Below are positions 387 through 60,857 of a stretch of 64,000 bases of DNA, one piece after another. Made by a program: the position numbers and the translations under genes. This DNA comes from Nannocystis sp. SCPEA4 (GTDB taxonomy: Bacteria > Myxococcota_A > Polyangia > Nannocystales > Nannocystaceae), in NCBI RefSeq assembly GCF_026626685.1, contig NZ_JAPNJX010000001.1, positions 76,752 through 140,751 of the forward strand, in the 5' to 3' direction. How positions within the stretch are numbered: position 1 is the stretch's first letter; each line of letters starts with the position of its first letter. The notes beneath the pieces are model-generated. The model had not been told where the DNA came from, made no database searches, and saw only the letters and a program-made list of their open reading frames with translations.

Positions 387-409
387 GCATTCAGGCAGGT
401 GCAAAAAGA

Positions 410-441
410 CAGGGCCGTGAGGACATGTCCTCACGGCCCTG
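410..441 (+). terminator. Perfect 32-bp palindrome cagggccgtgaggaCATGtcctcacggccctg immediately 3' of the acyl-CoA DH gene; probable bidirectional hairpin terminator / REP-like element
   Basis: Reverse complement is identical. Stem 14 bp around a CATG core, followed by ttcattc. Lies between convergent gene ends. Confidence 0.45.
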
Positions 442-577
442 TTCATTCGGGCATACAAGACCCCCCCTGCCGATCGAGCGACGCCCTCGTTCGAAGCGAC
501 CACTCCGCCTCACGACAAGCGGGGCCCGCCACACTCTTCTGGGGCGGCCTCGCGGCGGCGGAGTGGGACGCAGCGAG

Positions 578-1887
578 CAACCGTCAGGCGTGTCAAGGCA
601 TCTTCGTCCACGGCGTGTTGGACCGGACCATGGCGTTGAGGATGACAAGGAGCTTGCGCATGCAGGCCACGATAGCGACCTTGTCGGGTTTCCCGGAGGC
701 CCTCAGGTGCGCGTAGTACTCGGCGAGCTGCGAGTTGTAGGCGTGCCCGACGGCGGCGCGCGTCGTGGCGTACAGAGCCCGACGGATGTCATGCCGGCCG
801 CCTCGGATATGGCGTTCTCCGCGGTGCTTGCCCGAGTCACAGTTGAACGGTGCGACGCCGACAAGGGCGGCGATCGCCGTGCGGCTGAGCTTCCCGAGCT
901 CGGGAAGGCCAGCGAGAAGGGTCATCGAGAGCACACGACCTACGCCTGGAACGCTCTGGAGCAGCTTGTCGGCCTCGCGCCAGATCGGGCTGGCTTTGAT
1001 CGCTTTGCGGAGCTCCTTCTCGATGTCCTTGAGCTCCTGGTCGATCCACGCGACGTGGCGCTCGAGGCTCTGGCGCTCGCGCTTGTACAGTGCCGTTCGC
1101 AGCCGGTTGTTCTCGCTGATCTGGTTCTCTTGCAGCTGCTTGCGCCGACGAACGAGCGAGTCGATCTCCATCGTCTGCTCATCCTTGAGTGGCCGGGGCT
1201 CGGGCTTGAAGACCTCGGCGTACTCGGCGATCACGGCTGCGTCGATCTTGTCCGTCTTGGCGAGTCGGCCCTTGGCCTTGGCGAAGTCGCGGATCTGTCT
1301 CGCGTTCACCACCGCGACGGGGAGCCCAGCCGCGGCCAGCGCCGCTGCCACCGGGATCTCGTAGCCGCCTGTCGGTTCCATCACGATCAGCACCGGATCG
1401 AGCTGCTTCAGCCTGTCGATCAGGGCCGCGATAGCCGCCGGGTCATTGGCAATCTCAAACACCGGGCCTCGCGGTCCGAGGGCCACACAGAGGGTCTCCT
1501 TCGCAAGATCAATGCCGATGTACTGGTTCTTCGGGTCTTCTGGGGTCATGGCGATCCTTGCCGACGAATGTCCCGCGCCTCTCCCGCCGCCCTGCCTTGC
1601 AGGATTCGAGCTCGGTCTGACCGGCTCAGGCAACCGTTCGGGCTCTTGGAGAAGTCAACGCTTGGCGATCCTCGCTCTCTGGCGGGCTTGAGGCTCAGGG
1701 GCCCTACGATCTACCGAGCGCCCGGGAGCGAAGTCGTACCGCTTCTCAAGCCCACAAGCGGTTCGACAGCACACCAGAATTTCACTGGGAGAAAATCAAG
1801 GAGAGCGTCCGGCGATCCCTGCTCCCTGGCGGGCTCATGGCACCGGGGCCCCATCGATCTGCCGGACGCTCGGGGAGTTGATACAAG
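578..1887 (-). mobile_element. IS110-family insertion sequence (~1.31 kb), no obvious terminal IRs or target duplication
   Basis: Boundaries inferred from the uninterrupted repeat copy at 37100-37260. There is a single DEDD-type transposase ORF. The 335-bp non-coding arm is upstream of the transposase and the other arm is 15 bp, which is the typical IS110 asymmetry. Confidence 0.75.
593..1549 (-). CDS. IS110-family transposase (DEDD recombinase)
   Basis: N-terminal YIGIDLAKETLCVAL motif and C-terminal IS116/IS110/IS902 transposase-domain motifs (GVGRVLSMTLLAGLPELG, FNCDSGKHRGERHIRGGR). ATG at 1549. Confidence 0.85.
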   Translation of the reverse strand: MTPEDPKNQYIGIDLAKETLCVALGPRGPVFEIANDPAAIAALIDRLKQLDPVLIVMEPTGGYEIPVAAALAAAGLPVAVVNARQIRDFAKAKGRLAKTDKIDAAVIAEYAEVFKPEPRPLKDEQTMEIDSLVRRRKQLQENQISENNRLRTALYKRERQSLERHVAWIDQELKDIEKELRKAIKASPIWREADKLLQSVPGVGRVLSMTLLAGLPELGKLSRTAIAALVGVAPFNCDSGKHRGERHIRGGRHDIRRALYATTRAAVGHAYNSQLAEYYAHLRASGKPDKVAIVACMRKLLVILNAMVRSNTPWTKMP

Positions 1888-2158
1888 GGGCCCCATGCCT
1901 CACGCGCAGACGCGGGATCAATCTTCGGACATGCCCCATCGCCCTTCCGCGTCGAGCATGTGGCATGGCAGGTCTCGCGTCGCGAGGGACCCGCGCCGCC
2001 GCCGCGAGGCCGCCCCTCCCCGCTCCCCACGGCCCCGCGTCCTCGCGCACGCGATCCTCGACTCTCGCCTTCCCTCGCCGGCCTGGGCGACTCACCCGCA
2101 GAAAGCGACATGACCGCCAGGACATGTCCCGGCGGTCATGCTGTTGCGCCGCTGAACC

Positions 2159-3724
2159 TCAGGGCACCGCGGCCCACTCGCCGGTGGTGTCGGGGCACGC
2201 CGGCGTGAACACGGCCGTCTTCACCCACGCCTCGCCGGATTCGTCGAGCGTGTGGGCCGCGAGCGGGCTGCACACCTCGCCCTTGGCGTCGAAGTCGAGC
2301 GGCCCGGTGATGCCCGTGAGGTCGACGGACTTGCCGGTGGCGAACGCCGACAGCGCGGCGGGCACGAACATCTTCGGGCCCGTGCCGAAGTCGACCGGCA
2401 CGCCGGACTTGTCGGACAGCTTCTCCATCGCGTCGGCGACGCGCAGGCCGACGACGATGTCGCCGGACTTCACCGCGGCCATGCCGATCAGCGACGCCAT
2501 CGTCGCGTCGTAGGCGAGGCCGGCCTCGGGCGCCAGCGACGACTCGCCGAGGCGGGTGCGCAGCTTGGCGAGCTGCGGGGTGTCGAGGTCCGGGGTGATG
2601 GCGACGACGACGCCGGCGAGGTCCTTGTCCTTGAGCGCGGCGACCGCGGCCATCGCCCGCTGCGGCACGTAGATCTTCTGCGGCAGAGGGGCGCCGGTGG
2701 TCTTGTAGTACTTGATGATGTCGGCGACCTCGGCGCGGCCGAGCAGGACCAACATCTGCGGCATGTCGAAGCTCGTGAGCGCCGCGTCGAGCTTGGCCTT
2801 CGCGCCCTTGGTGGCGTCGTCGAGCCCGCGGTACGAGGCGATGAACTGGTTGCCGGGGACCTGGGGGATCTGGCTCGGACCGCCCGTCTCCTCGGTCGCC
2901 ACCGCGTTGTAGAGGCTGAGCCCGTACGCGTCCTCCGCCAGCAGCAGCACCGCGTTCGCGTCGGGGACGCCCATGAAGTCGGCGCCGATCCGGGCGCCGA
3001 GCGCCGGGCCCTGGTACTTGGCGCCGGCCATCGCCTGGAAGACCAGGTTGGCCGAGGTGTCGAGCTCGCTCATGTCGGCCGTGACCATCGGCCCCATCGT
3101 GAACGCGTTGACGCCGGGGGCGAACGTCACCTGGTCGACCACCGCCGTGAACTCGACGTCGTCGACCGGGCCGATGAGCACCGGGATCGCCAGCGTGTCG
3201 CCGAGGTGGCGGCCGGCCGACGTCGCCGACGCCACCTCGCTCTTGGTGTCGCAGACCACCAGCGCGATCTTGTCGCCGTTCGGCAGCTCGCCGGAGCCGT
3301 TGAACTCCTCGACCGCCGCCAGCACGCCCTTCTCCATCGCCTCGCCGAGCGCCGCGTCAGCGCCGGTCTTCGGCAGCATCACGCCGATGAAGGCGACGTC
3401 GTCGCTGACCTCGCCACCGGGGTAGATCGGCGCGCCGCACTCGTCGGTCTCGGTCGACGCACACTCGCGCGGCGCGCTCGAGGTGGCGCAGATGAACGCC
3501 TCGCCGAGGCCCGCGCACTGCGAGTTGGCGTCGCAGCCTTTCTCGCGGACCTGGCAGGTGTTGGCCGCGCAGTACATCGGCTTGTTGTCGTCGAAGAAGG
3601 CCGCGCAGTCGGCGTCCTCGTAGCACTCGGTGAAGTCGAGCGTCGCCGAGCACGCGCCCGCGATCACCCCGAGGACGCCGCAGACAGAGATCCGGGTCAG
3701 CATATGCGAGAAGACAGACGACAT
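2159..3724 (-). CDS. Periplasmic ligand-binding lipoprotein (type-1 PBP, Leu/Ile/Val-binding/ANF-receptor-like) with N-terminal Cys-rich module
   Basis: Lipobox VIAGAC, then a Cys-rich ~90 aa region, then a PBP1-like fold. ATG start with RBS. Confidence 0.65.
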   Translation of the reverse strand: MSSVFSHMLTRISVCGVLGVIAGACSATLDFTECYEDADCAAFFDDNKPMYCAANTCQVREKGCDANSQCAGLGEAFICATSSAPRECASTETDECGAPIYPGGEVSDDVAFIGVMLPKTGADAALGEAMEKGVLAAVEEFNGSGELPNGDKIALVVCDTKSEVASATSAGRHLGDTLAIPVLIGPVDDVEFTAVVDQVTFAPGVNAFTMGPMVTADMSELDTSANLVFQAMAGAKYQGPALGARIGADFMGVPDANAVLLLAEDAYGLSLYNAVATEETGGPSQIPQVPGNQFIASYRGLDDATKGAKAKLDAALTSFDMPQMLVLLGRAEVADIIKYYKTTGAPLPQKIYVPQRAMAAVAALKDKDLAGVVVAITPDLDTPQLAKLRTRLGESSLAPEAGLAYDATMASLIGMAAVKSGDIVVGLRVADAMEKLSDKSGVPVDFGTGPKMFVPAALSAFATGKSVDLTGITGPLDFDAKGEVCSPLAAHTLDESGEAWVKTAVFTPACPDTTGEWAAVP

Positions 3725-13225: not shown

Positions 13226-13251
13226 AAGTGGTCTCGCGCAGGAGTCGAACG

Positions 13252-14823
13252 ATGACCACCAAGCCCGCTACCACCACGCCCGCCACCCCCGACAGCCAAT
13301 GGCGCCAGGGCAAGCCCGTGGAGGACCCCGAGAAGATGAAGCGCTGGGGCTTCATCACCGCCAAGCCGTCCGAGTACCTCATCCACGTGCGTCGGGGACG
13401 GATCCGTCGCGCCAGCACCGGCCAGGGCGCGAGCTGCTTCAAGTGGCCGTGGGACAGCGTGGCCGTCATCCCGACCACCATCAACCGCCTGCAGTTCACC
13501 GCCGACCAGGTCACGCTCGAGAAGGTCGGCGTGCAGATCACCGGGCTCGCCGTCTACCGGATCGCCGAGCCGGAGCTGACCTTCCGCATGCTCAACTTCT
13601 CCTACAGCGAGCGCGCGCAGGAGAAGCTCGGCGAGATCCTCACCGAGATGTTCGTCGGCGCCACCCGGCGCCTCGTCGCCAACCTGCGCGTCGAGGACGC
13701 CATGACCCGGCGCAAGGAGTCGATCGCGCGCGAGCTGATGGCGGAGCTCGTGCCGATCGTCGAGGGCCGCGGCCGCACCGACGACAGCACCGCCACCGGT
13801 TGGGGCGTGATCATCGACACCGTCGAGATCCAGAACGTGCAGATCCTGTCGGACACCGTGTTCCAGGACATGCAGGCCCGGTTCCGCGCCGAGCTGGCCC
13901 TGCGCGCGCGCATGGCCGAGATGGAGAGCGCCCGCGAGATCGCCACCCTCGAGGCGACCTCGTCGCGCCAGATCGAGGAGGCCAAGATCGCCAGCGAGAC
14001 CGCCACGCGCGAGCTCAAGGCCCAGGCCGAGAGCCGCACCATGCAGATCGAGCTGGCCGAGGCCGCCAAGCGCGACGAGCTCGAGGCGCGCGCCGCCGAG
14101 GAGCAGCGCGTGCGCGACCAGATGCGCCTGTTCGCCGAGCTCAAGGCCTCCACCGAGCTCGCCGAGGAGCGAGCCGCCCGCGAGCAGGCGCGGGCCCTCG
14201 CCGAGCTCAAGGCCGCCACCGAGCTCGCCGAGGAGCGAGGTGCGCGCGAGCAGGCGCGCCTGCTCGGCGAGCTGCGGGCCAAGACCCAGATCGAGCAGGA
14301 GAAGGCCGCCCAGGCCGAGGCCGTGCGGCTGGCCCAGCTCGCGCGCGAGCGCAAGTACGCCGAGGCCGAGCGTCAGCTGCTCGAGGTCAAGCACACCACG
14401 CAGCAGCGCGAGGCCGAGCTCGCCGCCCAGCTGGCGATGAACCGCAGCAAGGCCAGCACCGAGCTCAAGGACCTCGAGAGCGCCGCGGCCGCGCGGCTCA
14501 AGGAGCGCGAGCTGCAGCTCGAGCGGCTCGCCGGCGAGGTCCGGGCCGCCGTGGCCCGGGCCGCTCGCGAGGTCGACAACCTCGTCTCCGACGACCGGAT
14601 CCGCATGGCCCTGGTCGAGACCGGCCTGCCCGCGATCGCCGGCGCGTTCGCGCAGAAGTTCGGCGAGGTCAAGATCACCTCGTTCGGCGAGGGCGCCGAC
14701 CCCTCGGCCATGGTCGCCCGCGGGATCGGCGAGGTCCTCGCGCTCGCCCGCAAGGTCGGCACCGACCTGCTCGCCACGCCGGCCGCGCCTGTCCCGTCGG
14801 ACAGCAGCCAGCCGGGCCAGTGA
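13252..14823 (+). CDS. Flotillin-like SPFH/Band-7 protein with long EA-rich coiled coil
   Basis: SPFH domain motifs, then ~200 aa of AEL/REQ repeats typical of FloT/YqiK. Confidence 0.85.
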   Translation: MTTKPATTTPATPDSQWRQGKPVEDPEKMKRWGFITAKPSEYLIHVRRGRIRRASTGQGASCFKWPWDSVAVIPTTINRLQFTADQVTLEKVGVQITGLAVYRIAEPELTFRMLNFSYSERAQEKLGEILTEMFVGATRRLVANLRVEDAMTRRKESIARELMAELVPIVEGRGRTDDSTATGWGVIIDTVEIQNVQILSDTVFQDMQARFRAELALRARMAEMESAREIATLEATSSRQIEEAKIASETATRELKAQAESRTMQIELAEAAKRDELEARAAEEQRVRDQMRLFAELKASTELAEERAAREQARALAELKAATELAEERGAREQARLLGELRAKTQIEQEKAAQAEAVRLAQLARERKYAEAERQLLEVKHTTQQREAELAAQLAMNRSKASTELKDLESAAAARLKERELQLERLAGEVRAAVARAAREVDNLVSDDRIRMALVETGLPAIAGAFAQKFGEVKITSFGEGADPSAMVARGIGEVLALARKVGTDLLATPAAPVPSDSSQPGQ

Positions 14824-15106
14824 ACGCGCCCCTCACATGTCCCAGGGGACAGCCAGCGCCGCAGGGCGGCGGCGCTCCACGCCCTGTCTCTTCGGACATA
14901 CCGGCGCCGGACCCATCGTTACGCGCATCGCCTGTCCTCCCGGACATGTCCTTGCGCACCCGTACGGGCGGCCCCTGCGCGGCTCCTCGCGGCTCGCCCG
15001 GCTCCTTCGTCGCCGCGCTGGCGACCACCCCCCTGTCCTCGGCCCCCCCGCGGCGCGACCGGTTGACCGGCACCGTGAGCAGTCCACGTTTTGCAGCACC
15101 ACGACG

Positions 15107-15727
15107 ATGCTGCCTGCCTCGACCTTGCCCGCCACGCCCCGCTCGACCTGTCTCTTGCGACAGGCTGTCGTCGTGCTGTCGATGGCCGCCTGCGACCCCT
15201 CGTCGGGCGACGGCGACGCCGACAGCGGCGACGACACCGGCGGGGCCGTCGCCTGTCCGCTCAACGACGCGTGGGAGCCGAACGACGACCCCGACGATCC
15301 GACCGACATGGCCTGGGACGCCGCCGACACGTGGTCGGCCTGGCACGAGGTCGACGACGCCTACCTGTGCCCTGGCGAGGACGACTGGTACCGCATCGAC
15401 CTCGCCGGCCTCGGCTACAGCGTGCACTACCTTTACGTCCGCGCGCTGGTGAAGGACGCCGGACTGTGCGGCGCCGCCTGCGGGGAGCCGGTGCTTGCGG
15501 CCGGCCCCGAGAACGCGATGACGATCGAGGTCTACCGGGCCGACACCCACGAGGCGCTGATCGCCCAGACCGCCGACGACGGCGTGCTCGCGCTCGCCGG
15601 CTCCGGCGACGACTACGCCGACGGCCTGCTGCTGCGCGTCCACAGCGACACACCGACGGCCGAGTATCCGTACCGGCTGAGCGTCTCCGTGCGCAACTAC
15701 GAAGGCGAGGACGAGTGTGAGTGCTGA
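15107..15727 (+). CDS. Secreted lipoprotein with PPC (pre-peptidase C-terminal)-like domain
   Basis: Signal plus lipobox VVLSMAAC, an acidic linker, and a DDWYRIDL motif. Confidence 0.5.
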   Translation: MLPASTLPATPRSTCLLRQAVVVLSMAACDPSSGDGDADSGDDTGGAVACPLNDAWEPNDDPDDPTDMAWDAADTWSAWHEVDDAYLCPGEDDWYRIDLAGLGYSVHYLYVRALVKDAGLCGAACGEPVLAAGPENAMTIEVYRADTHEALIAQTADDGVLALAGSGDDYADGLLLRVHSDTPTAEYPYRLSVSVRNYEGEDECEC

Positions 15728-16742
15728 GCCCGCACCATGGCGCGCCGCGATCGCGGCCCTCGCCGGCCTCGCGCTGACCTGTAGCGCGCCGACACCGACC
15801 GAGCCGACGAGCACCGACGACGAGGTCGTCCGCGATCGCGTCGACGTCCACGTCCACCTCGTCGGCGGCGCCGTCGACGAGTTGCTGGCCGCGCTCGACC
15901 GTCAGGCGATCGCGGCCGCCGTCGTCATCGCCTCGCCGCACCTCGATCCCGCCCTCGGCCGCGAGCCGGGCCGCGACGCCCGCCTGCGCGGCTGGCGGGA
16001 GGCCAACGAGGCCCTGCTCGCCGCCACCGCCGACCACCGCGATCGCCTGTTCCCCTTCATCACCGTCGAGCCGGCCGAGGTCGGCATCGCCGAGCTCGAG
16101 CGCTGGTTTCAGCGCGGCGCTCGCGGGGTCAAGCTCTACGCCGGCCACCAGGAGCTGCACGCGCGCCCGCTCGACGACCCGGCCCACGCCTCGCTGTTCG
16201 AGTGGCTCGAGCATCACTCCGTCCCTGTGCTCGCCCACGTCAACACCGTCCGCTACCGCGACGAGCTGGCCCGGCTCCTGCGCGCCCACCCGCGGCTCGA
16301 GCTGGTGTGCGCCCACCTGTGCGGCAGCCGGACCGACCTCGATCGCCTCGCCGGTCTCCTGCGCGAGTTCCCGCGGCTGCGCGTCGACACCAGCCACGGC
16401 GCCGGCCTGCCCGGCGTCGACGGCTTCACCGCGATCGAGACCGACCGCGATCGCCTGCGCGCCCTGATCGAGGTCCAGCCCGAGCGCTTCCTGTTCGGCT
16501 CTGACCTCGTCACCACCCGCGCGCCGGGCCACGAGGCCGACGCCGCGCGCGAGTGGGACCTGCAGCTGTCCGCCAACCTCGGGTTGCTCGAGCGCGAGCG
16601 CTTCGAGTTCTGGCGCCACACCGCCCGGATCGGCGCGTTCACCCCCGGCGTCTACCACGGCCTCGCGCTCGCCGACCCCGCGGTCTCGCGCGTGCTCGGC
16701 GGCAACGCCCGCGCCTGGCTCGGCGCCTACGGCCGCGAGTGA
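15717..16742 (+). CDS. Amidohydrolase-family (TIM-barrel metal-dependent hydrolase) lipoprotein
   Basis: VDVHVHL metal-binding motif and a conserved His/Asp pattern. GTG start overlapping the upstream stop. Lipobox-like LALTC. Confidence 0.7.
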   Translation: MSAEPAPWRAAIAALAGLALTCSAPTPTEPTSTDDEVVRDRVDVHVHLVGGAVDELLAALDRQAIAAAVVIASPHLDPALGREPGRDARLRGWREANEALLAATADHRDRLFPFITVEPAEVGIAELERWFQRGARGVKLYAGHQELHARPLDDPAHASLFEWLEHHSVPVLAHVNTVRYRDELARLLRAHPRLELVCAHLCGSRTDLDRLAGLLREFPRLRVDTSHGAGLPGVDGFTAIETDRDRLRALIEVQPERFLFGSDLVTTRAPGHEADAAREWDLQLSANLGLLERERFEFWRHTARIGAFTPGVYHGLALADPAVSRVLGGNARAWLGAYGRE

Positions 16743-18178: not shown

Positions 18179-19093
18179 ATGTTGCAGTTCGGCCTCGTCG
18201 CCATCCTCGCCTCGCCGCTCCCGTGGACCGCGCCTGCGCCCGCGCCCAGTCCGATCTACGGCGGCGACCTCGTCGAGCCGGGCTCGTGGCCGAGCGCCGT
18301 GGCGATCCTCATGGGCGACGTGCTGTGCACCGGCACCCTCGTCAGCGACACCGTCGTCCTCACCGCCGCGCACTGCCTCGACAGCAACCCGTCGCCGTCG
18401 CTCATGCACGTCGTCATCGGCGACGACGTGTTCTCTCAGTTCGACGAGTTCGTCGGTGTCGTCGAGCACGGCTCGCACCCCGACTTCTGCGGCACCGACA
18501 CCGAGAAGTGCAAGGTCGACATCTGGGACTACGGCTACGTCGTGCTCGAGCGGCCGATCACCAGCGTCGAGCCGACGCGGCCGATCGCCAGCCAGGCCGA
18601 GTGGGACGAGTCGATGTACATCGGAGCCCCGCTCACCTTGGTCGGCTTCGGCGACGACGAGAAGATGCTCAAGGGCTTCAAGCGCCAGGTCGACGTCGAG
18701 ATCGTCCGCTTCAGCACCACCGGCCTCGAGTTCCAGGCCGGCGGCATGGGCTTCGATTCGTGCCAGGGCGACTCCGGCGGCCCCGCGTTCGCCACGCTCG
18801 CCTCCGGCGAGGTCGTGCTCGCGGGCGTCGTCTCGCGCGGCTACACCTGCGGCAAGGGCGGCTTCTACGCCATCCCTTACGCCGCGCTGTGCTGGCTGAA
18901 CCAAGAGACAGGCGTCGACCTGCGCACCGACGCGTGCGAGGCCTGCGACTGCCTCGACATCTCGCCCAAGTCCGACGAGGGCTGCAACTGCCGCAGCGGC
19001 GAAGCCGGCGGCCCGCTCGGGCTCGCCGTGTTGCTCGCGCTGGCCGGTCTCAGAAGACCTGGGGCCCGACGACGACGTACGTCTCGGCCTTGA
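18179..19093 (+). CDS. Trypsin-like serine protease (S1) with MYXO-CTERM sorting tail
   Basis: TAAHC and GDSGGP catalytic motifs. C-terminus CNCRSGEAGGPLGLAVLLALAGLRRP...RRRR. Confidence 0.85.
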   Translation: MLQFGLVAILASPLPWTAPAPAPSPIYGGDLVEPGSWPSAVAILMGDVLCTGTLVSDTVVLTAAHCLDSNPSPSLMHVVIGDDVFSQFDEFVGVVEHGSHPDFCGTDTEKCKVDIWDYGYVVLERPITSVEPTRPIASQAEWDESMYIGAPLTLVGFGDDEKMLKGFKRQVDVEIVRFSTTGLEFQAGGMGFDSCQGDSGGPAFATLASGEVVLAGVVSRGYTCGKGGFYAIPYAALCWLNQETGVDLRTDACEACDCLDISPKSDEGCNCRSGEAGGPLGLAVLLALAGLRRPGARRRRTSRP

Positions 19094-19844
19094 GCACCTC
19101 GAGCAGCCCGGCCTCGAGCGCCGCCTTGTCGTAGTTGGCGAAGTCGAGGCCGCGGAAGAACGCGTCGTAGGTCTTGGCGACCGTCAGCGCCTTGCCGCCC
19201 GGCTCCTTGCCGGTGATCACGAGCGGGCGGCCTTCCACGGCGGTGCTCAGGTCGAGCTCGACGATCGCCGTCTGATTGGTCTCGAAGCCGAAGTTGGCGC
19301 CCTCGCTCTCGTTCGCCAGGTCTTTCGCCGTGCCGGCGAGGTAGACCGTGAGCCCCTCGATCGGCGCGTGGCCCTGGACCGCGTACGGCGTGTCGAACGC
19401 CTGCTCGGCCAGCGACGACTGGTAGCGGCCGTACTCGACGCGCAGCTTGCAATATGACCCTTCGGGCAGGTCGACCATGGCGAAGTCGACGAGGTCCTGG
19501 TCCTGCGCCAGCTGGTACTCGGGGAACGGACCGTAGGGCAGCTCGAAGTCGAAGCTCTCGCCGGCGCACGACTCGATCTGCGCCGCGGTCATCACGATCA
19601 CGCCCTCGGCCAGCGTGACCTCCCAGCCCTTGTCGTTGACGAACACGCGGGCGGCCTCGGGCTCGCCGAGATCCGGCAGAACTCCGTTCGCGTCGCGCGT
19701 ACCGTGGTGCGAGATGGCCAGCGAAACCTTCGTCGTCGGGTTCAACAGCGACTCGCAAGATGCCAGGCTCATCGTCGCCAGGGTCGCCAACACAACGCGT
19801 CGCGTGCTCCGCATCATCGTCATAAGTTGGGGCATCTTAGCCAT
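19050..19844 (-). CDS. Hypothetical lipoprotein
   Basis: Lipobox MSLASC and an ATG start; no family recognised. Confidence 0.5.
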   Translation of the reverse strand: MAKMPQLMTMMRSTRRVVLATLATMSLASCESLLNPTTKVSLAISHHGTRDANGVLPDLGEPEAARVFVNDKGWEVTLAEGVIVMTAAQIESCAGESFDFELPYGPFPEYQLAQDQDLVDFAMVDLPEGSYCKLRVEYGRYQSSLAEQAFDTPYAVQGHAPIEGLTVYLAGTAKDLANESEGANFGFETNQTAIVELDLSTAVEGRPLVITGKEPGGKALTVAKTYDAFFRGLDFANYDKAALEAGLLEVLKAETYVVVGPQVF

Positions 19845-22781: not shown

Positions 22782-23049
22782 CGACACGCCGGCGAGCCGC
22801 GAAGACGAAGCCGCGCATGCCGAACATGGTTCGCAACCCTGACACCGTCGAACGTCGATCCATTCGCAGGCGCTGACAGGCCGGCGAGCCGCGAAGAAGC
22901 GGCGGCCGTCCAACATCGTTCGCCGCGACACACGAGGCCTCGCGACCCGCTCATGGGCTCGCGCGACGACAGTCGCGCGAACGAAGTCAACCACGCAATT
23001 GTTCTTCGTACAGCTGTCACTTTCTCCTGTCGCCCTCAAGGAGCCGCCG

Positions 23050-24936
23050 ATGTCCGCGCGAACCGAGCCGAATTATGCCCGCTCACTGCTCGTCAACTGC
23101 ATGACCGTCTCGCTCGCCGCGCTGGTCCTCGCGTGCGAGCCCGCCGACGCTGCCGGCGATCCGGGAGCTCTCATCGACGTCGTCATGACCGGCCGCGTCG
23201 GCGTCGTCCTCGACGAGTTCCCCGCGGGCTCGCGCGACCGCGCCGCCGAGCTGTTCCTCGCCAAGCCGCTCGCGTTCTGGGAGGCGCGTGCGCGCCGGCA
23301 GACGCGCATGACCAACTACCGCCTCGCCTTCCGTCAGTTCTTCCACGACGACAAGTTGCAGCTGCCGCTCCCGCCCGACGCCGGCCTTCACTACGAGTTC
23401 GCCGGCGACGGCGCGCGCCGTGACAGCGTCGACGGCCACGACGTCGTCGTCATCGACTACACCCTCACCGGCACTCTCCTCGGCGACGTCGCCTCGATCC
23501 CCGCCTCCGAGCCCGCGCTCGTCGACGTCGGCGGCACCTGGGAGGAGCCCTTCGTCCTCCCGCTCGACCCCGAGTACCTGCGCCAGCGCACCGGCTACGC
23601 CTGCGTCGACGAGGAGGACTTCCCGCCCGACTCCTCGGACGAGGAGAACATCGCCGACTTCTTCGATCACGAGTGCGACGTCGAGGTCGCGCCCGACTAC
23701 GCCTGTCACCTCAGCGAGCCGCGGCCGACCGAGTCGTGCGTCGACGCGCTGCACGACCACGTCGGCGCCGTCGACACCGTCGTCCGCTTCGAGCGGCGCG
23801 CCTGGGATCCGCAGCGCGCCGACGAGGTGCGCCTCGGCGAGGTCACCACCCCCGACGCGCCCGACCTCGCCGTCGTCGGCGACGTCATCGGCAGCTCCGC
23901 CCGCCTCGTCTACCGCTACATCGCCCCCGACAGCTGCACCATGCGCGAGGGCTGCGTCGGCGGGTCCGGCTGGCGCCGCCTGCTGCAGTTCGACGCCAGC
24001 GTGCAGAACGTCGGCGGCGCCGACCTCCACCTCGGTGAGGTCGACTACTACGGCGAGGGCGTCGACGGCGAGCTCGCCGCCCACAACATCTACGAGTACA
24101 GCGACTGCCACCAGCACTATCACTTCCGTTTCTACGGCGACTTCGCCTACGCCACCGACGAGCACGCCGAGGGCTTCAAGCAGTCGTTCTGCCTGCAGAC
24201 CACCTCGCGCGCCGGCAACCACGAGAAGAGCCCGCTCAACACCCCCTACGGCAGCTGCGACTACCAGGGCATCGCCGCCGGCTGGGGCGACGACTACATC
24301 GCCGGCCTCGACTGTCAGTGGGTCGACGTCACCGACGTCGCCGTCCCGGGCGCCTCCGTCACCGCCCCGCTGGTCTTCACCTCCAACCCCGATCGCTTCC
24401 TCTGCGAGGGCGCCCCCGTGCTCGACGACGCCGGCGCCCGCCGCTACGAGCCCACCGACCTCAGGACCGAGACCGGCGCCGCCATCGAGCGGCCCATGTG
24501 CGAGTTCAGCAGCGGCTGGGACGGCAACAACGTCGGCGAGCGTCCGGTCGAGATCCCCGCCGTCGGCAGCTACGTCACCGCCGCCTGCGACCGCGAGCAG
24601 GAGGGCCCGCTGCGCAACTGCGGCTTCGCCGAGCAGACCGCCGCCATCGCCTGCAACGCCGGCGAGACCGTCGAGCTCGGGTGCACGATCCCCGCCGGCG
24701 CCGCGCCTATGGCCGTGCGCGTGTGCCCCGTCAGCGCCGTCCTCGGCGTCCCGCTCGCGTGCACGTACGTCCACGCGCTCGGAACCGGCGTCGTCGACGA
24801 CGGCGCCATGACCACCGTCCGCTTCACCTGCCCCGCCCCGCTCGCCGCCGACGAGCCCGGCGGCGAGGTCTCCCTGTTCACCGCCCCGCTCCTGCGCAGC
24901 GACCCGGGCGTCGAGGTCGCGTGCATGCCGCTGTGA
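23050..24936 (+). CDS. Lysyl oxidase-like copper amine oxidase lipoprotein
   Basis: Lipobox LVLAC. LOX catalytic-domain motifs CHQHYH, GFKQSFCLQTTS (cf. GHKASFCLEDTS) and DCQWVDVTDV (cf. DCQWIDITDV). RBS ggag before the ATG. Confidence 0.75.
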   Translation: MSARTEPNYARSLLVNCMTVSLAALVLACEPADAAGDPGALIDVVMTGRVGVVLDEFPAGSRDRAAELFLAKPLAFWEARARRQTRMTNYRLAFRQFFHDDKLQLPLPPDAGLHYEFAGDGARRDSVDGHDVVVIDYTLTGTLLGDVASIPASEPALVDVGGTWEEPFVLPLDPEYLRQRTGYACVDEEDFPPDSSDEENIADFFDHECDVEVAPDYACHLSEPRPTESCVDALHDHVGAVDTVVRFERRAWDPQRADEVRLGEVTTPDAPDLAVVGDVIGSSARLVYRYIAPDSCTMREGCVGGSGWRRLLQFDASVQNVGGADLHLGEVDYYGEGVDGELAAHNIYEYSDCHQHYHFRFYGDFAYATDEHAEGFKQSFCLQTTSRAGNHEKSPLNTPYGSCDYQGIAAGWGDDYIAGLDCQWVDVTDVAVPGASVTAPLVFTSNPDRFLCEGAPVLDDAGARRYEPTDLRTETGAAIERPMCEFSSGWDGNNVGERPVEIPAVGSYVTAACDREQEGPLRNCGFAEQTAAIACNAGETVELGCTIPAGAAPMAVRVCPVSAVLGVPLACTYVHALGTGVVDDGAMTTVRFTCPAPLAADEPGGEVSLFTAPLLRSDPGVEVACMPL

Positions 24937-24938
24937 CA

Positions 24939-24984
24939 CGTGTTCTTCAAGACATGTTCAAAAGAGCATGTCTTGAAGAACACG
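24939..24984 (+). terminator. Perfect 18-bp inverted repeat cgtgttcttcaagacatg/catgtcttgaagaacacg with 10-nt loop between the LOX gene and the next gene; hairpin terminator/attenuator or operator
   Basis: Arms are exact reverse complements. The element is AT-richer than its context and contains the recurring AAGACATG motif. Confidence 0.5.
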
Positions 24985-24992
24985 CCCATACC

Positions 24993-26155: not shown

Positions 26156-26806
26156 ATGACCGCCTCGCGCCACCCATCTCTCGCCCTATTCCTCGTCCTC
26201 GTCACCGTGGCCCCCGCCTGCGTGCTCACCCCCGAGCTAGTCGGCGAGACGCTCACCGAGGGCGGGGACTCCGCCACGACCACCTCCGCCGGCACTGCGG
26301 CGAGCGTCACGATCACCACCGCCACGGACTCCGCCGGTCAACCGAATCCGCTGCTCTACGGCCAGCCGTGCGAGCTCGTCGCCGAGGTGTGGGAAGAGAC
26401 CGCCGACCCGCCCGACGAGGACGACGTGGCTCAGCCGATGGCCTCCGCGCTGTCGGTGAGCGAGCAGTGCGTGTCCGGCATGTGCCTCCTGATTTACGAC
26501 GACTACCAGCTGATCGACTGCGAGACCGACGCCGACTGCGGCAAGCCCGAGCTCATCTGCGCCGGCTCCGGCCACTGCGCGCTGGCGCCCGAGTACGTCG
26601 CCGAGCACACCCGCTGCACCCAGGCCTGCGAGACCGCCGCCGACTGCCCGGACATCCCGGGCTGCCAGACGGGTGTCTCCTGTGTGATCGTCAGCCGCCT
26701 CGGCGCCAATTGCTGCCGACCCGTGTGCGCGTGCAACGACCAGCTCAGCGTCGGTCGCAGCGAGGAGCTCGCCGCCATCTGCGCCTACGACCCCGAGTGC
26801 CCCTGA
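26156..26806 (+). CDS. Cys-rich secreted lipoprotein
   Basis: Lipobox TVAPAC, a Thr-rich linker, and 16 Cys in the C-terminal domain. Confidence 0.55.
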   Translation: MTASRHPSLALFLVLVTVAPACVLTPELVGETLTEGGDSATTTSAGTAASVTITTATDSAGQPNPLLYGQPCELVAEVWEETADPPDEDDVAQPMASALSVSEQCVSGMCLLIYDDYQLIDCETDADCGKPELICAGSGHCALAPEYVAEHTRCTQACETAADCPDIPGCQTGVSCVIVSRLGANCCRPVCACNDQLSVGRSEELAAICAYDPECP

Positions 26807-26861: not shown

Positions 26862-26978
26862 CTCTCGGACATGTCCTCGACAACATGCCATGCCCTGGCC
26901 TCGCGCCCGCGCCCGCGCCCGCACGACACGAGCCCGCGACTCGCCTGCACTCCCGGACATGTCCTCGACAGCATGTCC
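26862..26978. repeat. Two direct copies of ctc(t/c)cggacatgtcctcgaca(a/g)catg in the 226-bp spacer before mqnD
   Basis: The copies start at ~26866 and ~26949 and each contains the GGACATGTCC palindrome. Confidence 0.45.
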
Positions 26979-36234: not shown

Positions 36235-36261
36235 GCCTCCTCGTTCCACACCAGCGCGGAG

Positions 36262-36597
36262 CCTCGAGCTGCGACGCATCTCTTGTTCCGCATTGGCGCG
36301 GGACCTCGAGCTGCGACTCGTCTCTTGTTTCGCGCGGGCGCGGGGCCTCGAGCTGCGACACATCTCTTGGTCCGCATTGGCGCGGGGCCTCGAGCTGCGA
36401 CGCATCTCTTGGTCCGCATTGGCGCGGGGCCTCGAGCTGCGACGCATCTCTTGGTCCGCATTGGCGCGGGGCCTCGAGCTGCGACGCATCTCTTGGTCCG
36501 CATTGGCGCGGAACCTCGAGCTGCGGCTCGTCTCTTGTTCCGCGCCGGTGCGGGGCCTCGAGCTGCGCCTCGTCTCTTGTTCCGCGCTGGCGCGGGG
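36262..36597. repeat. 42-bp minisatellite x8 (cctcgagctgcgacgcatctcttggtccgcattggcgcgggg), non-coding
   Basis: Eight head-to-tail units, the central four identical. The periodic ORFs on both strands are repeat artefacts. Confidence 0.8.
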
Positions 36598-36879
36598 CCA
36601 CGGAGACCCGGGGGGGTCGGCCCGGGCGCGGCGGAGCGGGTCCCTCGCTACGCGAGACCTGCCATGCCAGGTGCTCGCCGGCGATGTTTTGCTCTCCGCT
36701 TTCCGAAGGTTCTCTCGCCGTCTGCGCGCCAGGCATGGGGCCCCTCGCTGCGTCCCACTCCGCCGCGCCCGGGCCGACCCAGAAGATCCTCGAGCGGCCC
36801 CGCTCATCCCCGCGCGGCTGTCCCTTCGGTCCTGCTTCCAGGAACCTGTCTGAACGAGCAGGAGTGACGCTCTCCGTCT

Positions 36880-37560
36880 CTCGACAAGCGGTACCCCTCA
36901 CGCCCTCCGTTCTCTCGTTCGAAGCGACCATCTCCGCCTCACGACAAGCAGGGCCCGCCACGACCTCCTCGCGCGAAGCGACCATCTCCGCCTCACGACA
37001 AGCGGGGCCCGCCACTGCCTCCGCTCTCTCGCTCGAAGCGACCATCTCCGCCTCACGGCAAGCGGGGCCCGCCACGGCCTCCGCTCTCTCGCGCGAAGCG
37101 GTCATCTCCGCCTCACGACAAGCGGGGCCCACCACAATCTTCTGGGGCGGCCTCGCGGCGGCGGAGTGGGACGCAGCGAGGGGCCCCATGCCTCACGCGC
37201 AGACGCGGGATCAATCCTCGGACATGCCCCATCGCCCTTCCGCGTCGAGCATGTGGCATGGCAGGTCTCGCGTCGCGAGGGACCCGCTCCGCCGCCGCGA
37301 GGCCGCCCCTCCCCGCTCCCCACGGCCCCGCGTCTCCGCACACGCGATTCCCGATGCCTCTCGCCTGAGCCGCTCCCCACGGCCCCGCGTCCCCGCGCAC
37401 GCGATCCGAGACGACTCTCGCCTGAGCCGCTCCTCACGGCCCCGCGTCCCCGCGCACGTGCTCTTCGACGCGTCTCGCCCGAGCCGCCCGAGCAGCCCCG
37501 CGTCCGAGCACGCCTGATTCCCGTCCCGACAGCAGAAGCCCGCAGAACATTGAGAGCAAA
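36880..37560. repeat. Dispersed composite repeat, copy B: ~60-bp unit x4.5 (36885-37140), shared core (37100-37330), second ~58-bp unit x3 (37330-37500)
   Basis: ~95% identity to 505-577 plus 1888-2050. Both tandem blocks are collapsed to one unit in copy A. Contains the GGACATGCCCCAT motif. Confidence 0.75.
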
Positions 37561-55285: not shown

Positions 55286-56737
55286 TCAGCCCTCGGGCAG
55301 CACCACGAACGCGAACTCGCCGGGCGTCGCGGTCCCGAGCGTGTCGACGGACAGGAAGTAGGTGCCCGGCTGCAGCGGCCCCTCGAGCTCGCGGTCGCCC
55401 CGTTTCACGCACGTGCCGGCGTCGGTCAGCGTCATCAAGTGGAGGTCGACGTCGACGTTGCCCTGGTCGAACACCAGCGCCCGGATCGTCGTCGGCGCGT
55501 CGATCGTCAGCTCGTACACGAATTCGGGCCCGTCCTCGCCCATCGCCATGCACGCGCCCTGGTAGGCGTCGATCGCGTCGCTGGGGCTGTCGGCGGTGCT
55601 GCGCATGTCGGCGAACGGCAGGCCCGGGATCACGATCGGCTCCTCGAGCGTGCCGGCGCCCAGCAGCGTCGGCGCGGTCGCGTCGGGCGGCGGACCGCCG
55701 TCCACGATCACCGTCTTGCCGCGGGCGAGCGCCTCGAGCGTGACCAGGTTGCGGCGGTTGTAGCCGCTGGTGATGCCGCTGAAGCCGAACGCGCACGGAG
55801 CCGGCGTCACCATGTCGGCCGCGAGGGCGACGCTGAGGTCGATGCCGTCGGCCGCGAGCCCGGCGTTGGGCAGGCCCGCGAGCGCGAGGTTGAGGTCGAT
55901 CAGCGGGATCTTGCGGCCCTGCGCGAGGGCGCGGATGAACGCGTTGTAGCGCGGCACGTAGACATCGATCCCGGCCGGCATCGTGCGCGCAGGGATGGTC
56001 GACAGGATCGGCACCGTGCCGCCGGCGATCAGCGCGTCGACCACGGCGACGAGGTTGTCGGCGAACGTGAACACGCCGTCGGGCGGCGGCGCCTCGAGCT
56101 CGGTGGTGCCGAGCAGCACGACCGCGAAGCGCGGGTTGATCTCGGTCACCTCGCTTACCAGCGGCGACGGGGCGCCGGCCAGGATCTCGGCCCCGGTCCA
56201 GCCCGGCATCGCCGCCAGGCTGACGCGACTGAACGACGTCGCCCCCATGCCGGCCGCGGTGGCGTTGAAGAAGTCGACCGTGGGCTGCAGCGCCGGCGGC
56301 AGCTCGGCGATCTGCATGGCGTCGGCCAGGCAGTTCATGAAATTGCTGCTGGCGGTGTGCGTCCCGCCGACCTTGGCGAACACGCCGTCGGTCTTGACCC
56401 CCTTGGCCGCGATCGCGGTCATCGCCGCCGCCACGTCGGCCGTGATCGGCGAGTGCACCTCGGTGAACGGGTAGTACTCGCCGAGCACCGTCGGCTCGCC
56501 GGTCGTCGTCGTCTCGGTCTCACCTGTCTCCGAGGTCAGGGTGTCGCCCGTCGTCGTCGTCGTCGTCGTCTCGGTCGTGTCGGTCGCCGGCTCCGGCCCG
56601 GTGGTCGGGTCGGTCGACGTCGGCATCGCCGTCGCCGAGGTCGTGGCGAGCGTCCCGCTGGTCTCGCCGTCGAGCGGCGCTCCCGCTGCGCACCCGACCG
56701 CCAGCGCGGCCATCGGTCCGATAATCCATCGCGTCAT
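55286..56737 (-). CDS. Lipoprotein with Thr-rich linker (possible SGNH/hydrolase-like and PPC-like C-terminal domains)
   Basis: Lipobox LAVGCAAG and a TTETTTTT linker. Confidence 0.55.
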   Translation of the reverse strand: MTRWIIGPMAALAVGCAAGAPLDGETSGTLATTSATAMPTSTDPTTGPEPATDTTETTTTTTTGDTLTSETGETETTTTGEPTVLGEYYPFTEVHSPITADVAAAMTAIAAKGVKTDGVFAKVGGTHTASSNFMNCLADAMQIAELPPALQPTVDFFNATAAGMGATSFSRVSLAAMPGWTGAEILAGAPSPLVSEVTEINPRFAVVLLGTTELEAPPPDGVFTFADNLVAVVDALIAGGTVPILSTIPARTMPAGIDVYVPRYNAFIRALAQGRKIPLIDLNLALAGLPNAGLAADGIDLSVALAADMVTPAPCAFGFSGITSGYNRRNLVTLEALARGKTVIVDGGPPPDATAPTLLGAGTLEEPIVIPGLPFADMRSTADSPSDAIDAYQGACMAMGEDGPEFVYELTIDAPTTIRALVFDQGNVDVDLHLMTLTDAGTCVKRGDRELEGPLQPGTYFLSVDTLGTATPGEFAFVVLPEG

Positions 56738-56914
56738 GGCCCGGCAGGGTACACCATGTCGGCCGCCCCACCGCAGGGCCCGAGAGCGCGCCGGTCACGG
56801 CCCGGGGCGCCCGGCGAACGCGGGCCCGGCCCGTCGCACGCCGATCCGCGCGCGCCGGCCTTCGCGCGGCGCAGCCCGCTTCCGGGGCGTCCGCGCGCGT
56901 CTTCGCAACCGCGG

Positions 56915-57145
56915 CACAACATGTCCTCGCGGACATCTGCTCCCCGGATCGGGGCCGCACGGACGCCGCGCATGCAGGCGGACGTGCACCCGCTATCTCA
57001 GCGCCCGAGACGCGACAATTGTCGCGCCTGCCTGGCCCGAGAGACATGTCCGGATCGACCGCCGATCGTCCATGTCCCATCAGACATGTCCATGGCAGAC
57101 CCCGCGACCGCGCCACGGACATGACCATGAAGACATGTCCATGAA
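56915..57145. promoter_or_regulatory. Array of at least seven GACATGTCC-type sites in the promoter region of the 55286-56737 lipoprotein gene
   Basis: Sites in order: caacatgtcctcg, cggacatctgc, agacatgtccgga, tccatgtccca, agacatgtccatgg, cggacatgaccatg, agacatgtccatg. Confidence 0.45.
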
Positions 57146-57168
57146 GCCATCCGTGCGCAGCCTGGCGC

Positions 57169-58569
57169 TCAATCGCCGCGGCCGGCGCGGCCGAGGAAGA
57201 AGCCGGCGAGCCCGCCGGTCACGCCCCACGACGTCCCGCGCGGGATCTCCGGGACCGCCGTCTCGAGCCGCTGCCAGTTGACGGCCGCGAACACCCGCAG
57301 GTGCTGCAGGAGCACCCAGTTGACGCCCGCGGACGCGGCCGTGATGCCGTTGCCGGCCAGGTCGCGGGCGCCGACGCGGAAGCGCTCGAAGCGGGCCGAC
57401 AGCTCGACCGCGCTGTCGCGGACGCGCCGGCTCGCCAGCCGCGGCAGCAGCGTCGCCGGGTCCTTCTCCTGCCCCGTCACCACCGCCCCGAGCTGCGCGT
57501 AGCCGCCGGCGCCGATGAACTGCGGCAGCGGGTCGCCGGGCGTGAACGGGTCGCCGTCGGTGTCGCGCTCGCGCGAGTCGTACGTGTAGAAGAACTCGCC
57601 GCGGGCCGACAGGAAGCGCCAGAACAGCCCGCCGCCGGCCGTGAAGCGCCGCGACGCCCCGCTGCTCGGCAGCCCGTGGAAGAAGTCGAAGCCGAACGCG
57701 GTCGTCACCGTCGGCGTGAAGCCGTTGGTCTTGTGGTACGCGAACACCGACGCCACCAGGATCAGCTTCGGCCCGCGCTGCAGCCCCGCCAGCGGGTTGA
57801 GCTGGACCTTGCCGGCGAACGCGATCTTCGTGTTGTTGGCCTCGCGGTTCTGGCCGATGCCGGAGAACACCGCCGCCGTCACCTCGGCCCAGCGCCAGAA
57901 GTCGTACGCCACCTCGAGCCCGACCTGCCGGCCCGGCGTGGCCGCCAGCAGCGACAGCGGCGCCCGCGGCAGCTCGTCGACCAAATCGGGCGCGTTGAAG
58001 CGGAGCCCGAACGGCGCCTTGAACTGGCCCGCGCGCAGCCGCAGCCGCGGCGCCGCCGCCCACGCCACGAACGCGTCGAACAGCTGCGGCCCCTTGGCCT
58101 GCGCCGCCTCGATCGTCACGAACGCCGTCACCGGCCCGACGCTCACCCCGCCGCCGATCCGCGCCCCGGCCAGGCTGATGTTGCTGTAGCCCTCGCGCGG
58201 CGCCGAGTACCAGGTCGCGTCGGTGCGGATCCACCCGTACGGGAAGAACTCGAACCGCTCGCGCAGCGGCTTCTTCGCGGCTGGAAGTTCGGGCATGCTC
58301 TTCGGGACAGGCGTCTCACCGCCGGCCGCAGCGGCCCCTGCAGGCCCTGAAGTGGATGTGTCCGTTCGGACATGCTCCTTCGGACCTCCGCCCTGGGCGT
58401 CGCCCGGCGCCGGCACAGAGATGTCCGTTTGGACAGGTTCGCCTGTACCTGCCTCACCGGGTGTGTGGCCAGCGCTCTGCCCCGGGCGCTCGGGCACCGG
58501 CACGCTGGTCACCTCCTCGGCCGGCGCCGTCGCCAGCGCTGCCCCCATGATGATCGTCGTCGACAGCAC
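57169..58569 (-). CDS. Outer-membrane beta-barrel porin-like protein
   Basis: Signal peptide, low-complexity N-terminal region, and alternating beta-strand pattern ending in an aromatic residue. GTG start; alternative ATG at 58548. Confidence 0.45.
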   Translation of the reverse strand: MLSTTIIMGAALATAPAEEVTSVPVPERPGQSAGHTPGEAGTGEPVQTDISVPAPGDAQGGGPKEHVRTDTSTSGPAGAAAAGGETPVPKSMPELPAAKKPLRERFEFFPYGWIRTDATWYSAPREGYSNISLAGARIGGGVSVGPVTAFVTIEAAQAKGPQLFDAFVAWAAAPRLRLRAGQFKAPFGLRFNAPDLVDELPRAPLSLLAATPGRQVGLEVAYDFWRWAEVTAAVFSGIGQNREANNTKIAFAGKVQLNPLAGLQRGPKLILVASVFAYHKTNGFTPTVTTAFGFDFFHGLPSSGASRRFTAGGGLFWRFLSARGEFFYTYDSRERDTDGDPFTPGDPLPQFIGAGGYAQLGAVVTGQEKDPATLLPRLASRRVRDSAVELSARFERFRVGARDLAGNGITAASAGVNWVLLQHLRVFAAVNWQRLETAVPEIPRGTSWGVTGGLAGFFLGRAGRGD

Positions 58570-60738: not shown

Positions 60739-60857
60739 GACGCGTACTCTTTCCTCGATGGAAAGCACACTTGTCAAGTGACTTCGCCGATCCCCTCCCC
60801 TCGCCCGTTCAGCGGCGCGGGCTGCCCCGACCCGGCGATGCGCGTAGGCTCGCGCGC

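Follow-up and report, generated by a model that had tools for sequence, protein, structure and literature searches.

Between a phosphate-selective porin-like gene and a GDSL-like lipoprotein gene of Nannocystis sp. SCPEA4 lies a 431-bp spacer (56738-57168 of the 64,000-nucleotide stretch analysed here, hereafter the window; 70% GC) that carries an array of short palindromic sites. The question raised by this locus is whether the array, which lies in the 3' flank of the porin gene, acts as a switch for the lipoprotein gene downstream or is an element of a different kind. A preliminary description had proposed a cooperative multi-site operator or enhancer, with a micro-satellite of the same element as the alternative. 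Our analysis favours, with a probability of about 0.6, a cluster of lineage-specific palindromic repeats resembling repetitive extragenic palindromic (REP) sequences and bacterial interspersed mosaic elements (BIME), with a possible hairpin barrier at the 3' end of the porin gene. Since units of this family crowd stop codons and the spacers between converging genes, we assigned the array to the tail of the porin gene; it is probably not a switch for the lipoprotein gene.

Seven matches of at least 8 of 10 positions to the unit GGACATGTCC were found in the spacer, at 56917 (CAACATGTCC), 56931 (GGACATCTGC), 57042, 57082 and 57131 (each AGACATGTCC), 57068 (GTCCATGTCC) and 57117 (GGACATGACC), whereas dinucleotide shuffling of the spacer (500 shuffles) led to an expectation of 0.29 and to no more than 3 in any shuffle. 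The seven copies of the preliminary description are therefore present at the positions it gave, but only three carry the exact (A/G)GACATGTCC, while the remaining four have 1-2 mismatches. The spacing of 12-35 bp that it had given did not hold, as the start-to-start distances are 14, 111, 26, 14, 35 and 14 bp. These distances resolve the array into three doublets in exact 14-bp register plus one single unit rather than an even row, and Tandem Repeats Finder (TRF) reported a 14-bp period across 57118-57150. The unit is a 10-bp palindrome, RRRCATGYYY, with GGACATGTCC as its best form, and the lattice reads GGACATGTCC-N4-GGACATGTCC-N4 and so on. Its commonest form is the doublet of 24 bp, with two units in 14-bp register, which occurs alone, as lattices of 3-4 units that make long perfect hairpins, or strung together as at the porin gene.

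The same register was seen throughout the window. GACATGTCC gave 19 strand-matches compared to 0.48 expected. Half-site pairs were concentrated at two spacings, GGACA-N0-TGTCC (7 exact, 21 allowing up to 1 mismatch) and TGTCC-N4-GGACA (8 exact, 23 allowing up to 1 mismatch), with 0-5 pairs at each remaining spacing from 0 to 11. Pairs of units matching at least 15 of 20 positions numbered 20 at N4 versus 0-4 at every other gap between 0 and 24. We also scanned a metagenome collection for the perfect doublet GGACATGTCC-N4-GGACATGTCC and obtained 91 stretches, nearly all of 67-77% GC, which gave 87 distinct perfect doublets on high-GC contigs, nearly all Nannocystis-like. The Nannocystis-type sequence sampled amounted to ~0.9 Mb, and genes on the metagenome loci were called with a simple caller based on GC content at third codon positions (GC3). 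Among units that had not been used to find these loci, 14, 28 and 42 bp were the dominant spacings, and 21 clusters of at least four units were present.

The family is concentrated just past stop codons and between converging genes. In the window, 22 sites fall in the 9.1 kb outside genes and 22 in the 54.9 kb inside genes (2.4 versus 0.4 per kb; ~6-fold). All window clusters outside genes (421, 2120, 14834, 24936, 26867 and 57140) begin 0-61 nt past a stop codon, and a unit at 16764 lies 21 nt past the stop of gene 15717-16742, within the last codons of the converging gene. The main clusters in spacers between genes of the same direction, three in all (2106-2143, 14834-14951 and the distal five units of the array), lie closer to the stop of the upstream gene (20-122 nt) than to the start of the next one (160-497 nt). 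Outside this pattern are the sites at 1927 and 37220 (inside another repeat) and the proximal doublet of the array. Perfect doublets of the metagenome loci with genes called on both sides (n = 33) were distributed as 25 convergent, 8 same-direction and 0 divergent, compared to 8.7, 18.0 and 6.3 expected from base-pair proportions (chi-square p ~7e-10). Another 27 have a facing 3' end on one flank, the opposite flank being without a called gene, and 15 of the 87 lie within open reading frames (ORFs). Spacers without scanned doublets gave the same picture, with 1.09 units per kb in convergent, 0.45 in tandem and 0.14 in divergent ones, and 12 of 14 units in the tandem class closer to the stop.

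The distance from a perfect doublet to the facing stop codon was mostly 25 nt or less, with a sharp peak at exactly 6 nt (16 cases), where the TGA falls on lattice positions 6-8, within a degenerate third unit, and a smaller one at 11 nt (5 cases), where it falls on positions 1-3. It looks as if the lattice extends into gene ends, or as if the element has remodelled them (loci L007-L097). Strings of doublets resembling the porin array were common in the metagenome loci; one of them (L020) has eight units spaced 14, 23, 14, 26, 14, 23 and 14 bp, the first lying 6 nt past a stop and the next gene 960 nt off. Units matching at least 9 of 10 positions occurred about once per 3-6 kb of the sampled sequence, which would amount to thousands if extrapolated to a 12-Mb genome. 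The coordinates of the array, of the other members of the family in the window and of the two flanking genes are collected in Table 1.

Table 1. Coordinates of the repeat array, other family members in the window and flanking genes.
Feature	Position	Strand	Sequence, score or predicted hairpin	Context
Doublet 1	57117..57140		GGACATGACC-atga-AGACATGTCC; 9/10 + 9/10	28 nt past porin stop
Doublet 2	57068..57091		GTCCATGTCC-catc-AGACATGTCC; 8/10 + 9/10	
Single unit	57042..57051		AGACATGTCC; 9/10	without partner in register
16-bp perfect palindrome	57011..57026		CGCGACAATTGTCGCG; hairpin -15.1 kcal/mol	between repeat units, not a family unit
Doublet 3 (proximal)	56917..56940		CAACATGTCC-tcgc-GGACATCTGC; inner core TGTCC-N4-GGACA	
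3-unit lattice	407..444		16-bp-stem hairpin, -32.6 kcal/mol	20 nt past stop of gene 3-386 (+), convergent spacer
3-unit lattice with hairpin	2106..2143		-28.7 kcal/mol	15 nt past stop of gene 2159-3724 (-)
Cluster of TGTCC-N4-GGACA cores with one perfect unit	14834..14951			11 nt past stop of gene 13228-14823 (+)
4-unit lattice	24936..24987		~21-bp-stem hairpin, -35.1 kcal/mol	overlaps stop of gene 22999-24936 (+)
Two doublets 88 bp apart	26867..26978			convergent spacer past gene 26156-26806 (+)
Two doublets in the variable N-terminal low-complexity linker of the porin	58354..58440		exact TGTCC-N4-GGACA cores at 58359 and 58422	coding
Phosphate-selective porin O/P-like gene	57169-58569	minus	Pfam PF07396, E 2.4e-6; GC3 0.94	
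GDSL-like lipoprotein gene	55286-56737	minus	Pfam PF13472	downstream of array

These positions bear directly on the proposal that a transcription factor controls the lipoprotein gene, or the porin/lipoprotein pair, by way of a cooperative multi-site operator or enhancer. The array does lie upstream of the lipoprotein gene, and palindromic units in a fixed register look like known operator arrays. The met-boxes of MetJ (AGACGTCT) and the heptads of the omega repressor are tandem operator arrays of small dimeric repressors, each unit being read by dimers that touch one another; they share with the Nannocystis family short palindromic or heptad units placed head to tail in a fixed register, and the met-box resembles AGAC-AT-GTCT. 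However, those arrays overlap the promoters of a defined regulon, whereas the Nannocystis family marks 3' ends and avoids divergent spacers, where none of the 33 fully classified perfect doublets was found. Calling the region a promoter is misleading, because the distal copies start 28 nt past the porin stop codon and all five of them are 300-400 nt from the lipoprotein ATG, at positions that are not conserved. No match to the sigma-54 consensus TGGCAC-N5-TTGCW (up to 2 mismatches) and no sigma-70-like site was detected in 56738-57168, by scans that cover only these two promoter types, and the density of sites given above is too high for a local regulator. An operator role is in our view improbable, even though arrays occur in all five orthologous spacers and the proximal doublet (56917-56940) is fixed in position.

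An NHL-repeat lipoprotein gene and an XRE-type helix-turn-helix (HTH)/PBP-like regulator gene lie upstream of the porin and lipoprotein genes. The regulator was considered but rejected as the binder because its own promoter (~60778-60830, minus strand) carries a different repeat: ortholog alignment shows a conserved TTGACA and, immediately before the ATG, the inverted repeat CTTTCCAT.GTGGAAAG, while the 'GTCATGTCC' found there is an ATG-TCC start. The inverted repeat is probably an auto-operator, and the regulator mRNA may be leaderless. With a phosphate porin and members of the phosphatase family nearby, a Pho-box reading was also weighed; it was discarded, as the units are inverted and not direct 11-bp repeats. 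A small ORF that spans the array was not taken as coding, because its third positions are low in GC, unlike those of this genome. No Rfam family reached the gathering score in the window, and near the array there was only a microRNA (miRNA) match at noise level.

We compared the orthologous porin-lipoprotein spacers of the window and four other Nannocystis genomes. A search for a record identical to the lipoprotein gave none. The N. radixulma locus is ~98% identical to the window overall at the nucleotide level, with 100% identity of the lipoprotein across the best segment, and the lipoprotein orthologues in N. pusilla, Nannocystis sp. RBIL2 and N. bainbridge are 80-82% identical. Similar arrays in orthologous promoters had been named in the preliminary description as a point to check, and they were present in all five spacers (4-8 units compared to 0.2-0.3 expected), but the distal units vary in number, sequence and position, with N. 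bainbridge carrying a 5-unit lattice in place of the two doublets of the window, and only the proximal doublet is fixed. The latter lies in a near-invariant block of 170 bp (~56860-57030), which across four Nannocystis species is better conserved than the flanking coding DNA, and the core CAATTGTCGC of the palindrome at 57011..57026 is also kept across species. Conservation likewise exceeds that of the flanking coding DNA in the 42 nt ahead of the lipoprotein ATG (GCGGCCGACATGGTGTACCCTGCCGGGCCATG), which show no variation among five genomes and contain a 7-codon upstream ORF (uORF) whose TGA overlaps the lipoprotein ATG. The structure predicted for the conserved spacer parts (56738-57030) shows almost no covariation; these parts may represent a leader, a small RNA or a promoter of unusual type.

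Turnover of individual copies was also apparent at a second locus. One of the doublet-bearing metagenome contigs has a dnaK gene whose product shares 87% identity with the DnaK proteins of N. pusilla and N. bainbridge. Over 21.8 kb, the dnaK loci of these two species contain 6-7 units that match at least 9 of 10 positions, among them arrays 3' of dnaK and, in a convergent spacer, a lattice of 7 units. Arrays flank dnaK in all three organisms at differing positions. In contrast, no unit of at least 9/10 was found in ~22 kb around dnaK in each of Nannocystaceae bacterium ST9 and Plesiocystis pacifica. The locus of a Nannocystis sp. metagenome-assembled genome (MAG) has almost no units, and a related metagenome contig of 76% GC (L005) carries the repeat variant ACCTGTCC-N4-GGACAGGT. 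Judged by these sequences, the repeat family appears to be Nannocystis-specific, with fast turnover between species. In the literature available to us, we found no bacterial description of the motif for Nannocystis, for myxobacterial extragenic palindromes or for REPINs (hairpin-forming pairs of REPs) and their associated tyrosine transposases (RAYTs) in Myxococc*. The exact string of the motif led only to papers on p53 response elements, and we took its match to the p53 half-site, RRRCATGYYY, as coincidence.

Perfect doublets lie in frame within 15 ORFs. The 24 bp of the doublet correspond to eight codons and translate as GHVPxDMS. MutS proteins of the Nannocystis clade (P0241-P0257) carry, at one point, in-frame inserts of variable length composed of lattice units (for example GQVPEDMSEGTC), and in the homologue P0248 a repeat of 14 residues (42 bp, three units) is present in four to five tandem copies, while MutS of ST9, Enhygromyxa, Pseudenhygromyxa and Plesiocystis is without an insert at that point. 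At the DNA level, mutS of N. pusilla and N. bainbridge has three units in register (L098 1848-1885 and L099 2097-2134), of which units 1 and 2 are identical between the species and the spacers and the degenerate third unit differ. The porin itself holds two doublets in its linker, and of the whole locus this stretch has diverged most from N. radixulma (83% identity against ~98% elsewhere). On contig L005, an Lhr helicase gene has the variant repeat inside its Gly/Glu-rich linkers, and an imelysin/DHOR operon has it at three junctions (sites 16367, 18532-18640 and 19656-19700), and another metagenome contig (L083) is a perfect 14-bp tandem repeat. The family grows in 14-bp steps, and it can insert and expand in frame within permissive protein loops. 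The micro-satellite or repeat alternative of the preliminary description was essentially right: these are repeats in rigid 14-bp register that expand in tandem and turn over quickly from one species to the next.

The closest known kind of element is the REP/BIME or REPIN type, known from enterobacteria and pseudomonads. A REP unit has ~20-40 nt, with a conserved GTAG-like 5' tetranucleotide beside a hairpin. Like REP/BIME/REPIN elements, the Nannocystis family is a lineage-limited, over-represented short palindrome found outside genes at 3' ends and within operons, forms inverted doublets at fixed spacing with hairpins predicted for single-stranded DNA or mRNA, occurs in clusters and tandem arrays, and persists vertically with turnover of individual copies. 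REP and REPIN elements are extragenic, occur as fixed-spacing doublets, can form hairpins and are clustered (Bertels & Rainey 2011, PMC3116915; PMC3337134). The Nannocystis unit, by contrast, is itself palindromic, and its family has a strict 14-bp register and a conserved CATG core; the flank consensus outside a doublet is only a degenerate third unit, with no GTAG-like tetranucleotide, and among copies only the 10-bp units are conserved, while spacers and flanks differ. No RAYT transposase was linked to the family in 560 kb of loci, copies also lie in frame within genes, and no compensatory maintenance of the stems was detected.

Two other comparisons cover part of these features. The Rickettsia palindromic elements (RPE), reportedly described by Ogata et al. 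in 2000, are said to be selfish DNA inserted in frame in protein genes. The Nannocystis units likewise sit in frame at permissive surface positions of conserved proteins (MutS, Lhr, the porin linker), and the insert is missing from MutS of the outgroups; unlike them, RPE have 100-150 bp, no periodic lattice and no concentration past stops, whereas here only the 10-bp units are conserved. Terminator hairpins are said (Gardner et al. 2011, the RNIE paper) to arise from inverted DNA-uptake sequences in Neisseria and Haemophilus and from the TRIT motif of Mycobacterium tuberculosis. Those words resemble the Nannocystis family in being short, over-represented and placed as hairpins right 3' of genes, often between converging genes, but none of them is a palindromic unit repeated in fixed register, and the uptake sequences have a known receptor-based rationale.

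We then considered the hairpins. The array RNA gave -142.9 kcal/mol (z -2.9) on the sense (minus) strand and -109.1 kcal/mol (z -1.75) on the antisense strand. Doublet 1, which reads GGACATGTCT-TCAT-GGTCATGTCC on the sense strand, had a hairpin of -17.6 kcal/mol (antisense, -10.4), close to the -17.8 kcal/mol of a perfect doublet; doublet 2 reached -11.6 (antisense, -6.9) and doublet 3 reached -12.8 (antisense, -8.9), the latter with a 6-bp stem on the sense strand and a GCGA loop that is GGGA in other species. Stems extend past the perfect doublets in 14% of cases compared to 1.3% of controls. The sites at 421, 2120 and 24950, which at first resembled terminator hairpins with the motif at the tip, are 3- or 4-unit lattices whose outer degenerate units and spacers are mutually complementary (-29 to -35 kcal/mol). 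A weak excess of complementary CT/AG centre pairs was also seen (8 compared to 3.4 expected). Some copies are clearly under selection for forming a hairpin, yet this is no general constraint.

Conserved terminator motifs have been described in some high-GC bacteria, and the doublets could be plain intrinsic (factor-independent) terminators that share their stem sequence by descent. The family hairpins tested are indeed GC-rich, range from -11.6 to -35 kcal/mol and come soon after a stop codon, often between converging genes, with 10-bp stems and 4-nt loops. A minority of copies also have T runs (L055, L063 and L037), and in the window TTCATTC and CTTTCT follow the hairpins at 421 and 2120. On the other hand, the U-tract is missing in most copies, the stems are not maintained by compensatory changes, single units and units within genes are common, and a terminator stem needs neither an internal palindrome nor a conserved CATG. 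This makes plain terminators a quite improbable account of the family.

Some of the same results weigh against a cluster of REP/BIME-like repeats with a hairpin barrier. Inter-unit compensation in 332 imperfect doublets was 15.3% compared to 14.2 ± 1.2% after permutation, and no family-wide excess of G·U on the sense strand was found (27 G·U compared to 41 A·C in spacers), so the hairpin is not demonstrably the selected feature. The T frequency at flank positions 1-4 after doublets was only 0.11-0.35, a simple terminator scan detected none in the array, and units within genes (15 of the 87 perfect doublets) would be hard to reconcile with hairpins that terminate efficiently. At 10 bp and 24 bp, the unit and the doublet are also far smaller than classical REPs (~20-40 nt) and REPINs (~100 nt). 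As to an enzyme that generates the copies, no ORF with units on both flanks was present in the 560 kb of loci.

What is conserved within a unit pointed to how it may be read. In the orthologous 7-unit lattice, CATG was kept at 26 of 28 positions, compared to 15 of 39 arm positions and 13 of 27 spacer positions, and the changes in the arms were mostly purine-to-purine or pyrimidine-to-pyrimidine. Since the CATG core and the purine/pyrimidine arms are kept in each unit with no compensation by the partner, recognition unit by unit by a putative symmetric factor is probable. The main rival reading, possible but on the unlikely side, is that the units are selected sites of an abundant symmetric host DNA-binding protein in 14-bp register at gene 3' ends; a nucleoid-associated protein, a transcription roadblock or a factor that positions topoisomerase could be such a protein. 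The array would then be a strong loading site for several dimers, and the hairpin potential a by-product of tandem palindromes. Constraint on each unit alone, with no partner compensation and no strand bias, agrees with this proposal, as do the core and arms kept across species while spacers drift, a rigid 14-bp register that fits dimer-dimer contacts, and the enrichment between converging genes. Positive supercoils and colliding polymerases occur between converging genes. However, a protein lattice does not need the complementarity of outer degenerate units and spacers at three window loci, the in-frame growth in MutS and the absence from sister genera better fit selfish or mutational spread, and no candidate protein is known. 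CdbA, a ribbon-helix-helix (RHH) nucleoid protein of Myxococcus, was rejected as the binder, its motif being a GC-rich direct repeat separated by 4 bp (PMC7156744) and not this palindrome.

A further view, which we consider doubtful, takes the units as sites of a putative symmetric protein that polymerises on DNA in 14-bp register at gene ends, with a linked copy mechanism that creates and expands them. Such a polymer could place three dimers per four helical turns and constitute a '3'-end marking' nucleoprotein system in Nannocystis; it could serve as a transcription roadblock or as a topological insulator between converging genes, with sites written even into protein loops.

An iterated palindrome serving DNA modification or uptake is, in our estimate, highly improbable. 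The former would involve a methyltransferase for CATG or ACATGT, similar to HIP1, the highly iterated palindrome of cyanobacteria (GCGATCGC) for which a methyltransferase link has been proposed; the latter would be Neisseria-like, and Neisseria uptake sequences pair up as terminator hairpins. As with HIP1, the Nannocystis palindrome is short, lineage-specific and far above chance in both genes and spacers, and CATG is its best-conserved part. The strict 14-bp lattice and the strong bias to stop codons and 3' ends are nevertheless foreign to HIP1, and uptake sequences form no lattice of palindromic units.

For the REP/BIME-like cluster at the porin gene, a hairpin barrier in the porin transcript that insulates the lipoprotein gene is the most likely local effect suggested by the predicted folding. 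The five distal copies in the porin transcript would fold into two or three hairpins, which may stop or pause read-through into the lipoprotein gene, shield the 3' end of the porin mRNA from exonucleases, or both. The lipoprotein gene would be driven from its own conserved proximal sequences. The symmetric, sequence-specific factor that may recognise the units one by one could be either the spreading agent or a host binding protein.

The window contains further repeats that are distinct from this family. An IS110-family element at 578-1885, with its transposase gene at 593-1633 (minus strand; Pfam DEDD_Tnp_IS110 and Transposase_20), interrupts a ~250-bp repeat whose uninterrupted copy lies at 37106-37354; GGACATGCCC is found within this repeat, as are long inverted repeats. 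Although the element is near the sites at 421 and 2120, it was rejected as their mobiliser, as it sits within a different repeat. Dense unrelated tandem repeats occupy 36254-37505 in a 1.5-kb non-coding stretch, with periods of 42 bp (8.2 copies, 36254-36599), 60 bp (4.5 copies, 36871-37135) and 57 bp (3.4 copies, 37313-37505). The first of these was considered as a 3-unit lattice, but its repeat unit is unrelated. Three 66-bp tandem repeats at 14094-14291, inside gene 13228-14823, encode an AEE..LAELKA-type segment. Several near-matches to the motif (32348, 48338) are start codons with Ser as the next residue.

REP-like elements have been best studied in gamma-proteobacteria. If our reading is right, Nannocystis, whose genomes of 10-12 Mb are mined for natural products, has its own miniature family of palindromic repeats, and one of unusual design: its unit measures 10 bp, its lattice keeps strictly to 14 bp, the CATG core is conserved, stop codons are part of the lattice, and the repeats grow in frame inside proteins such as MutS. 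Annotation of these motifs as operators would then be wrong. They would instead mark the 3' ends of genes, could guide the prediction of terminators and operons in these genomes, and would be likely hot spots of slippage and assembly errors. This smaller, periodic variant in the Myxococcota also raises the question of which agent copies the repeats and which one reads them.

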